64,000 nucleotides of DNA from a virus. The first letter of the stretch is position 1. Each line of letters starts with the position of its first letter. The notes beneath the pieces were generated by a model, which was given only the letters and a program-made list of their open reading frames with translations, searched no databases and was not told the DNA's origin. The DNA lies in UHGV virus genome UHGV-0370399; one strand, written 5' to 3'. Shown in pieces: positions 14,309-14,385 of the stretch. Both the position numbers and the translations under genes were made by a program.

Positions 14309-14385
14309 GCACCTATAGCCCAACTGGTAGAGGCAGCAGACTTAGAATCTGCTCAGTGTGAGTTCGAATCTCTCTAGGTGTACCA
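14309..14385 (+). tRNA. tRNA with anticodon UAG (decodes CUA/CUG Leu) but with a short variable arm; CCA encoded
   Basis: Acceptor GCACCTA/TAGGTGT, anticodon stem GCAGA/TCTGC with loop CTTAGAA, T-loop TTCGAAT; starts 2 nt after the HNH stop. Confidence 0.6.

Follow-up and report, generated by a model that had tools for sequence, protein, structure and literature searches.

Streptomyces coelicolor carries a tRNA-Leu(CAA) of type I, with a variable loop of 5 nt, which exists alongside type II leucine tRNAs and a single LeuRS (PMC6614811). Five nucleotides is the shortest loop that gives good charging in this system, and the tRNA is charged by its own LeuRS but not by that of E. coli, an enzyme described as charging type II tRNA-Leu only (PMC6614811). 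The same study treats the type II form as near-universal in bacteria, records that type I is also established for mitochondria, and leaves phages unmentioned (PMC6614811). A mycobacterial tRNA gene cluster with an HNH endonuclease contains a tRNA-Leu(TAG) whose short variable loop receives a one-sentence remark (PMC6582537), and the MenT3 study implies long loops in only three leucine tRNAs of Mycobacterium tuberculosis. The tRNA-Thr(UAG) of yeast mitochondria also has a short variable loop and reads CUN codons (PMC4756836). [quoted passage not shown]

Here we consider a tRNA-Leu(UAG) gene from a Felix O1-like phage (UHGV virus genome UHGV-0370399), of which a stretch of 64,000 nt, referred to as the window, was analysed. 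A sequence-only reading had set the UAG anticodon of this tRNA against its short variable arm and had suggested either a non-canonical tRNA-Leu or some other identity. The first of these suggestions is supported by a leucine-type D arm, the LeuRS elements and the occurrence of all six leucine anticodons on such bodies, while the second is unlikely. The premise behind the suggestion, that every bacterial-type tRNA-Leu has a long arm, proves too strong, since short-armed leucine tRNAs occur in S. coelicolor, in the mycobacterial cluster, in phages and in Actinomycetota. Judged by its sequence, the tRNA is probably a functional type I tRNA-Leu, charged by the host LeuRS and supplying the CUA codon in which the phage is enriched; unusual as it is in shape, it would most likely be ordinary in function. 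Short-armed leucine tRNAs of phages and Actinomycetota form a large family that has received little discussion, and the window tRNA is one of its members. Hundreds of phage genomes already carry the annotation tRNA-Leu for this gene, and its value lies in the pattern behind it.

How close are the described systems? The S. coelicolor tRNA is chromosomal and has a CAA anticodon, whereas ours is a phage gene with UAG and an enterobacterial host; moreover, the loop of the former is ACAGC, with C48, and that of the latter UCAGU, with U48. The failure of the E. coli LeuRS on the S. coelicolor tRNA counts against charging of our tRNA by an enterobacterial LeuRS. We infer that C48 may explain it, U48 being needed opposite A15, and U48 is thus a candidate reason for that published negative result. 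The mycobacterial cluster, likened here to the window by its description, offers the same anticodon, a short loop and a mobile-looking array next to an HNH gene, and in both cases the tRNA contrasts with the normal long-loop isoacceptor of the host; the mycobacterial array, however, lies in a bacterial genome, with an actinomycetotal host. More broadly, phages like this one provide a natural test set, in which the LeuRS of hosts with long-armed leucine tRNAs only (E. coli, Salmonella) faces arm-less substrates.

The gene and its surroundings

According to ARAGORN, 15 tRNA genes lie on the + strand from 11580 to 14631, among them tRNA-Leu(tag) at 14309-14385 (+), whose parts are collected in Table 1. 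The Rfam tRNA model RF00005 matches 14309-14382 along its full length (model positions 1-71) with 57.3 bits, the gathering score being 29 (E = 1.7e-12). As the sequence-only reading had it, the anticodon UAG sits in the loop CTTAGAA between the stems GCAGA and TCTGC: ARAGORN, the Rfam alignment and the minimum free energy (MFE) fold agree on this 7-nt loop and on UAG as positions 34-36, and no alternative fold places a different triplet there. The folding energy does not stand out from that of shuffled sequences (z = -0.16), which is usual for tRNAs. The gene length of 74 nt and the 5-nt variable region were likewise read correctly. A stem-loop variable arm of more than 10 nt is the mark of class II (type II) tRNAs, and the window tRNA has only UCAGU; a leucine anticodon, a leucine-type core and a variable loop of about 5 nt, the marks of a type I tRNA-Leu, are all found.

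Table 1. Coordinates of the tRNA-Leu(UAG) gene, its parts and the adjoining reading frame in the window.
Feature	Position	Strand	Basis and remarks
HNH endonuclease ORF	13855..14307	+	Pfam PF01844, 23.2 bits vs cutoff 21.4
tRNA-Leu(UAG) body, 74 nt (positions 1-73 plus extra D-loop base 20a)	14309..14382	+	ARAGORN, Rfam
Acceptor stem, 5' strand GCACCUA	14309..14315	+	Pairs with 14375-14381 (UAGGUGU); G1.U72, C2-G71; Rfam alignment
Leucine-type D arm GCC-C-AACUGGUAG-A-GGC, 17 nt	14318..14334	+	Aligned with leuW, leuV and T5 tRNA-Leu
Anticodon arm: stem GCAGA/UCUGC, loop CUUAGAA (C32, U33, A37, A38)	14336..14352	+	Sequence, Rfam, MFE fold
Anticodon UAG	14343..14345	+	ARAGORN, Rfam alignment
Variable loop, 5 nt, UCAGU (U44 C45 A46 G47 U48)	14353..14357	+	U48 partners A15
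T arm GUGAG-UUCGAAU-CUCUC	14358..14374	+	U50.U64 mismatch, kept across Ounavirinae
Discriminator A73	14382	+	
Genome-encoded 3' CCA	14383..14385	+	Sequence, ARAGORN

Two irregular pairs, U50.U64 (14359/14373) and G1.U72 (14309/14381), are kept in all Ounavirinae copies examined, and a G.U at 1:72 is seen in 11 of 60 family members. On the opposite strand, 14309-14383 (-) gives a sub-threshold match to Rfam RF04354, Plastid-ycf2 5'UTR RNA (36.5 bits, where the gathering score is 65.7). This model presumably resembles the reverse complement of the plastid tRNA gene beside ycf2 (trnL-CAA), and we treat the match as an artefact of tRNA similarity rather than as a second feature.

The window tRNA is 100% identical to the annotated tRNA-Leu of Escherichia phage wV8. 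Altogether 252 phage records match it, 92 of them at 90% identity or more, and among the matches listed at least 40 Felix O1-like phages of E. coli, Salmonella and Shigella hosts have it at 100% identity, annotated as tRNA-Leu. Across three genera of Ounavirinae just four positions vary (16, 20, 59 and C43U), none of which is an identity element, and the C43U variant retains a G.U pair; this pattern points to purifying selection on the gene. With the tRNA as query, blastn at E <= 10 hit none of 5,426 complete E. coli genomes, hence no host or prophage copy.

That an HNH gene stops just ahead of the tRNA, as had been noticed, is borne out: its TAA lies at 14305-14307 and the single base 14308 separates it from the tRNA. 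Relative to phage wV8, the HNH region 13843-14300 is an insertion directly 5' of the tRNA-Leu gene, and phages without the insertion carry the tRNA at the same place. The last HNH codons and the stop fall in the pre-tRNA leader GATTTAAT, which is itself kept in phages that lack the insertion. The same arrangement of HNH gene and tRNA-Leu is found in ECML-1, SP22, mistaenkt, Michonne and other Ounavirinae.

Family covariation also supports the fold. Across 60 distinct 74-nt relatives, 97.8% of the cells in the alignment are paired, compared with 37-47% in slid controls, and compensatory changes are seen in 19 of 20 pairs and in all four stems (7 of 7 in the acceptor stem). These data bear on the question of whether the gene has a translational role at all. 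It begins 1 nt past the HNH ORF, departs from regular pairing in the T stem (a mismatch) and at 1:72 (G.U), and lies in a cluster that gains and loses tRNA genes, as in a 2.56-kb deletion of ten, so that one could take it for a pseudogene, a tRNA-like decoy, or a processing signal such as an RNase P site ending the HNH mRNA. We regard this as very improbable, given that the gene is 100% conserved in dozens of phages and stands in the same place where there is no HNH insertion, that its identity elements are invariant across genera, that the family covaries in four stems and conserves A73, U48 and the T loop, and that the gene has an encoded CCA and a matching codon demand.

If the gene is instead a working tRNA-Leu, its maturation can be sketched as follows. 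The tRNA would be co-transcribed with its neighbours in the cluster, RNase P would cut the 5' end one base past the HNH stop codon, and the 3' end would be trimmed back to the encoded CCA. A promoter scan gave 7 sites where 4.4 +/- 2.4 are expected, with no transcription start assignable. Downstream of the last tRNA, and ahead of a small ORF at 14854 and the terminase gene at 15061, a terminator-like hairpin at 14794-14811 (+), GACGGTCTCTGTGCCGTC followed by TTTTTT, is a possible end of the tRNA transcription unit.

Two other members of the cluster are worth recording. The tRNA-Gly(UCC) at 14557-14631 is a chimera, its 5' two-thirds being the tRNA-Gly of wV8 and its T arm and 3' acceptor strand the wV8 tRNA-Cys (window 14557-14631 and 14605-14636 against L001 4249-4323 and 6837-6912); it has two acceptor-stem mismatches and a low Rfam score of 43.6 bits. 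At the junction about 2.56 kb has been deleted, and with it ten tRNA genes of wV8 (Thr, Val, Leu-CAA, Arg, Gln, Leu-UAA, Gln, His, Phe and Ser); a 1.3-kb query across the junction found no phage record matching at least 80% of the query. The neighbouring tRNA at 14393-14468, with anticodon CUU and called Lys, also has G1.U72. At the same cluster place in phage Sf14 the best isotype is Cys, with 60.7 against 41.4 for Lys (PMC12482277), and the identity of the CUU tRNA may deserve a separate check.

Probable leucine identity and codon demand

Do the determinants recognised by the host enzyme survive the loss of the arm? The sequence-only reading had proposed checking the discriminator and the D loop against LeuRS rules, and every E. 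coli determinant is present: A73 (14382), the trans-Levitt pair A15 (14323):U48 (14357), G18G19 and A20a in a 9-nt D loop on a 3-bp stem, U8:A14, and U54, U55, C56 and A58 of the T loop. C2-G71 is there as well, and UAG at 14343-14345 conforms to the leucine anticodons (NAG or YAA). In an alignment with E. coli leuW (UAG, 85 nt), leuV (CAG, 87 nt) and phage T5 tRNA-Leu(UAG) (85 nt), the D arm, with its 3-bp stem, unpaired C13 and A22, AAYUGGUAG loop, A14, A15, G18, G19 and A20a, matches column for column, and the main difference is that 10-12 nt of variable arm are missing.

The comparison with leuW, a type II tRNA, is instructive. The two share the anticodon, the 3-bp D stem, a AAUUGGUAGA-type loop, A73, A15:U48, U8:A14 and C2-G71, and outside the arm 44 of 69 positions are identical; the variable arm itself has 13 nt in leuW and 15 nt in leuV, against 5 nt here. 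Their anticodon loops also differ, UUUAGGU with G37 in leuW and CUUAGAA with A37 in the window tRNA (14341-14347). Bacterial tRNA-Leu that reads CUN normally has G37, the m1G37 site. Three features of the window tRNA count against the reading as a functional tRNA-Leu: A37 in place of the host's G37, the wobble G1.U72 and the mismatch U50.U64. The tRNA-Leu(UAG) of T5 resembles it in anticodon, in host species and in belonging to a phage tRNA cluster interspersed with HNH genes; again 44 of 69 positions outside the arm are identical, and the T5 tRNA is on record as an amber suppressor once its anticodon has been changed.

Isotype models point the same way, by a small margin. Shigella phage Sf14, of the genus Mooglevirus, shares the anticodon loop and the order of the cluster (Sf18, of that genus too, shows 97% identity). 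For its homologous UAG tRNA the tRNAscan-SE scores are 67.4 for Leu, 65.7 for Ile2 and 63.4 for Lys, and for the CAA and UAA tRNAs of Sf14 the Leu model is likewise on top (PMC12482277); the paper is silent on the variable arm. When the anticodon is masked and the window tRNA is compared with 1,495 distinct phage tRNAs, 29 of its 40 closest neighbours are short leucine tRNAs, a class that accounts for 7.6% of that set.

Consider then the possibility that the tRNA is charged with another amino acid and, like the tRNA-Thr(UAG) of yeast mitochondria, mistranslates or recodes CUN codons. In its favour, a short variable loop is not typical of bacterial tRNA-Leu, the Ile2 and Lys scores of the Sf14 homologue come near that of Leu, and once short leucine tRNAs are removed the nearest bodies are a mixture of Lys, Thr, Asn and others. 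The yeast tRNA, however, has an enlarged (8-nt) anticodon loop and is charged by ThrRS, and the 8-nt loop and non-leucine body that would mark a recoding tRNA are not what we find here, where a 7-nt loop is combined with a leucine-type D arm, A73 and A15:U48. LysRS, IleRS, ArgRS, ValRS and GlnRS require anticodon bases that UAG does not have, and the window tRNA has neither G3:U70 nor a long arm for SerRS; Lys, Ile, Arg, Val, Gln, Ala and Ser identities are accordingly dismissed, by identity rules applied to the sequence, on their anticodon and acceptor determinants. Moreover, the same body bears anticodons from both leucine boxes, CUN and UUR, and for that reason a non-leucine identity is hard to reconcile with the family. 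Recoding would, finally, harm the proteins of a phage that itself uses CUA at 8.3 per 1000 codons. We therefore consider charging with another amino acid extremely unlikely.

If leucine is indeed the amino acid, the host LeuRS would attach it, and the tRNA would decode CUA and CUG, together with further codons should U34 be modified as in the host. An UAG anticodon reads CUA and CUG by standard wobble. The CUA codon occurs 8.3 times per 1000 codons in 62 ORFs of the window, the figure for a 49-kb sample of E. coli being 2.6, and CUU too is enriched relative to that sample. The phage tRNA may serve to top up the host pool of tRNA-Leu(UAG), whose codon is rare there and about three times as frequent in the phage.

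Short-armed leucine tRNAs across phages

The window tRNA is far from alone. In wV8 all leucine tRNAs are short (UAG 77 nt, CAA 78 nt and UAA 79 nt, including CCA), and the Ser (90 and 93 nt) and Tyr (88 nt) tRNAs of the same phage retain long arms. The pattern recurs in Mycobacterium phage Koguma (CAG, GAG and CAA, 74-76 nt), in Cronobacter phage CR3 (UAG and CAA) and in Streptomyces phage Elmer, which has two UAG copies, and short leucine tRNAs are also found in Enterococcus, Pseudomonas and Myxococcus phages and in a crAss-like phage.

To see how general the form is, we scanned IMG/VR with a pattern combining the D-loop and the short-loop geometry, took the matches listed, from at least 120 stretches, and passed them to ARAGORN. 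The D-loop pattern taken alone, AAYTGGYAGA followed by 10 nt and T, is not specific to leucine and also caught Lys, Thr, Gln, Gly and Ala tRNAs, because in these a 4-bp D stem makes the T of the pattern U34; it became informative once the U33 and U34 registers were separated. In the U33 register, 55 of 57 tRNAs of this geometry among the matches listed have leucine anticodons, and all six are represented (tag 16, caa 16, taa 12, gag 5, cag 4 and aag 2).

Among 98 short-loop leucine tRNAs from phage loci, A73 is present in 97, U48 in 97 and a loop of exactly 5 nt in 85, and long leucine tRNAs of phages have A73 in 46 of 47. The combination of A73 with A15:U48 is found in 91 of 97 leucine tRNAs with a short loop, in 37 of 42 with a long arm, and in at most about half of any other isotype; one of the scan patterns pre-selected A14/A15 (A15 partly), while A73 and U48 were free of pre-selection. 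Among the tRNA-Leu(NAG) of phages, 29 of the 50 short members have A37, as do 7 of the 16 long ones; it is thus a phage trait independent of arm length.

A second viral sample was drawn with a generic T-arm/CCA pattern that favours neither type of leucine tRNA, and its numbers refer to the matches listed, which are not a census. Here 21 leucine tRNAs are short and 46 long (about 30% short), two leucine tRNAs of 86 nt having been left unparsed; none of 46 Ser tRNAs and 1 of 17 Tyr tRNAs among the matches listed is short, and at least 10 of the listed loci carry both types of tRNA-Leu. In textbooks and recent papers the leucine tRNAs of bacteria are type II and S. coelicolor is a rare exception, whereas about three in ten of the viral leucine tRNAs in this sample are type I. 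In the literature we searched, coverage of which was incomplete, we found no description of a phage-wide pattern of short-armed or type I tRNA-Leu beyond the S. coelicolor study, the remark on the mycobacterial cluster and the isotype table for Sf14. Annotation pipelines and isotype models could flag such genes explicitly.

Why should leucine be singled out? SerRS and bacterial TyrRS use the long arm, and LeuRS does not. Since LeuRS ignores the arm, loss of the arm can persist in leucine tRNAs only, and Ser and Tyr tRNAs keep theirs. A model of this kind fits the absence of short forms among the 46 Ser tRNAs listed in the leucine-neutral sample.

Chromosomal relatives and the origin of the short arm

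Scanning species-representative bacterial and archaeal genomes gave at least 120 loci, and 100 of the matches listed are from Actinomycetota, in genera that include Nocardia, Mycobacterium, Gordonia, Corynebacterium, Bifidobacterium and Amycolatopsis. At 92 of these 100 listed loci the short leucine tRNA is the sole tRNA within 8 kb, and the anticodons, again among the matches listed, are UAA (52), CAA (28), UAG (12) and CAG (2). The chromosomal type I tRNAs, single-copy genes in many actinomycetotal genera, share the geometry of the window tRNA, its A73 and its U48, and are identical to it at up to 60 of 74 positions, or 55 of 69 outside the variable loop, with 19 of 20 in the D arm and 16 of 17 in the anticodon arm. 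They differ from it in their GC-rich stems and in being mostly single genes, mainly with UAA and CAA.

When each tRNA is joined to its nearest neighbour, short goes with short in 59 of 67 cases and long with long in 22 of 27, mixed pairs being 14-18 differences apart, so that repeated loss of the arm from long-armed neighbours finds no support in this grouping. Because the window tRNA agrees with the Actinomycetota tRNAs at 55 of 69 positions and with leuW and T5 at 44 of 69, and because short and long forms fall mostly into separate groups, the Felix-type gene looks, by its sequence, like a member of an old type I lineage rather than a recent deletion derivative of a host gene, with the caveat that tRNA sequences are too short to prove lineage. 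The short arm would then be a trait inherited from the type I tRNA-Leu lineage shared by many phages and Actinomycetota.

Could the short arm nevertheless be an adaptation, by which phage leucine tRNAs escape immune effectors or toxins of the host that recognise class II tRNAs by the long arm? Such a proposal would refine the explanation by descent rather than oppose it, being compatible with inheritance, and a LeuRS that ignores the arm would keep charging the tRNA; we nevertheless find it rather unlikely. It is true that arm loss is specific to one isotype (21 short and 46 long for Leu, 0 of 46 short for Ser and 1 of 17 for Tyr among the matches listed), and that the anticodon loop differs from that of the host at three positions, as in phage tRNAs that evade nucleases. 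Toxins that read the variable arm do exist (MenT3 and probably AbiEii), so that a part for the short arm in counter-defence is conceivable, though unsupported. On the other hand, tolerance by the synthetase explains isotype-specific loss equally well, no enterobacterial effector is known that targets tRNA-Leu through its arm, and tRNA-Leu is not preferred by MenT3. The largely separate grouping of short and long forms and the chromosomal lineage in Actinomycetota fit simple descent, and at least 10 viral loci carry both types.

That arm-less phage tRNA-Leu is a counter-defence, with the corollary that enterobacterial LeuRS charges type I tRNA efficiently given U48, is a proposal to which we attach a small probability. 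Were it true, leucine decoding would be kept alive while the host tRNA-Leu was attacked by toxins, nucleases or nucleotidyltransferases that select class II tRNAs, and the corollary would contradict the view that enterobacterial LeuRS charges type II only. The pattern also invites tests of a connection with defence systems that recognise this arm.

The scan of species-representative genomes also reached other phyla and groups, among them Acidobacteriota, Cyanobacteria, Planctomycetota, Lachnospiraceae and Rhodocyclaceae. Of the 20 loci listed from these, 13 are arrays of 4-25 tRNAs, with up to 25 tRNAs in 8 kb, and such arrays look mobile.
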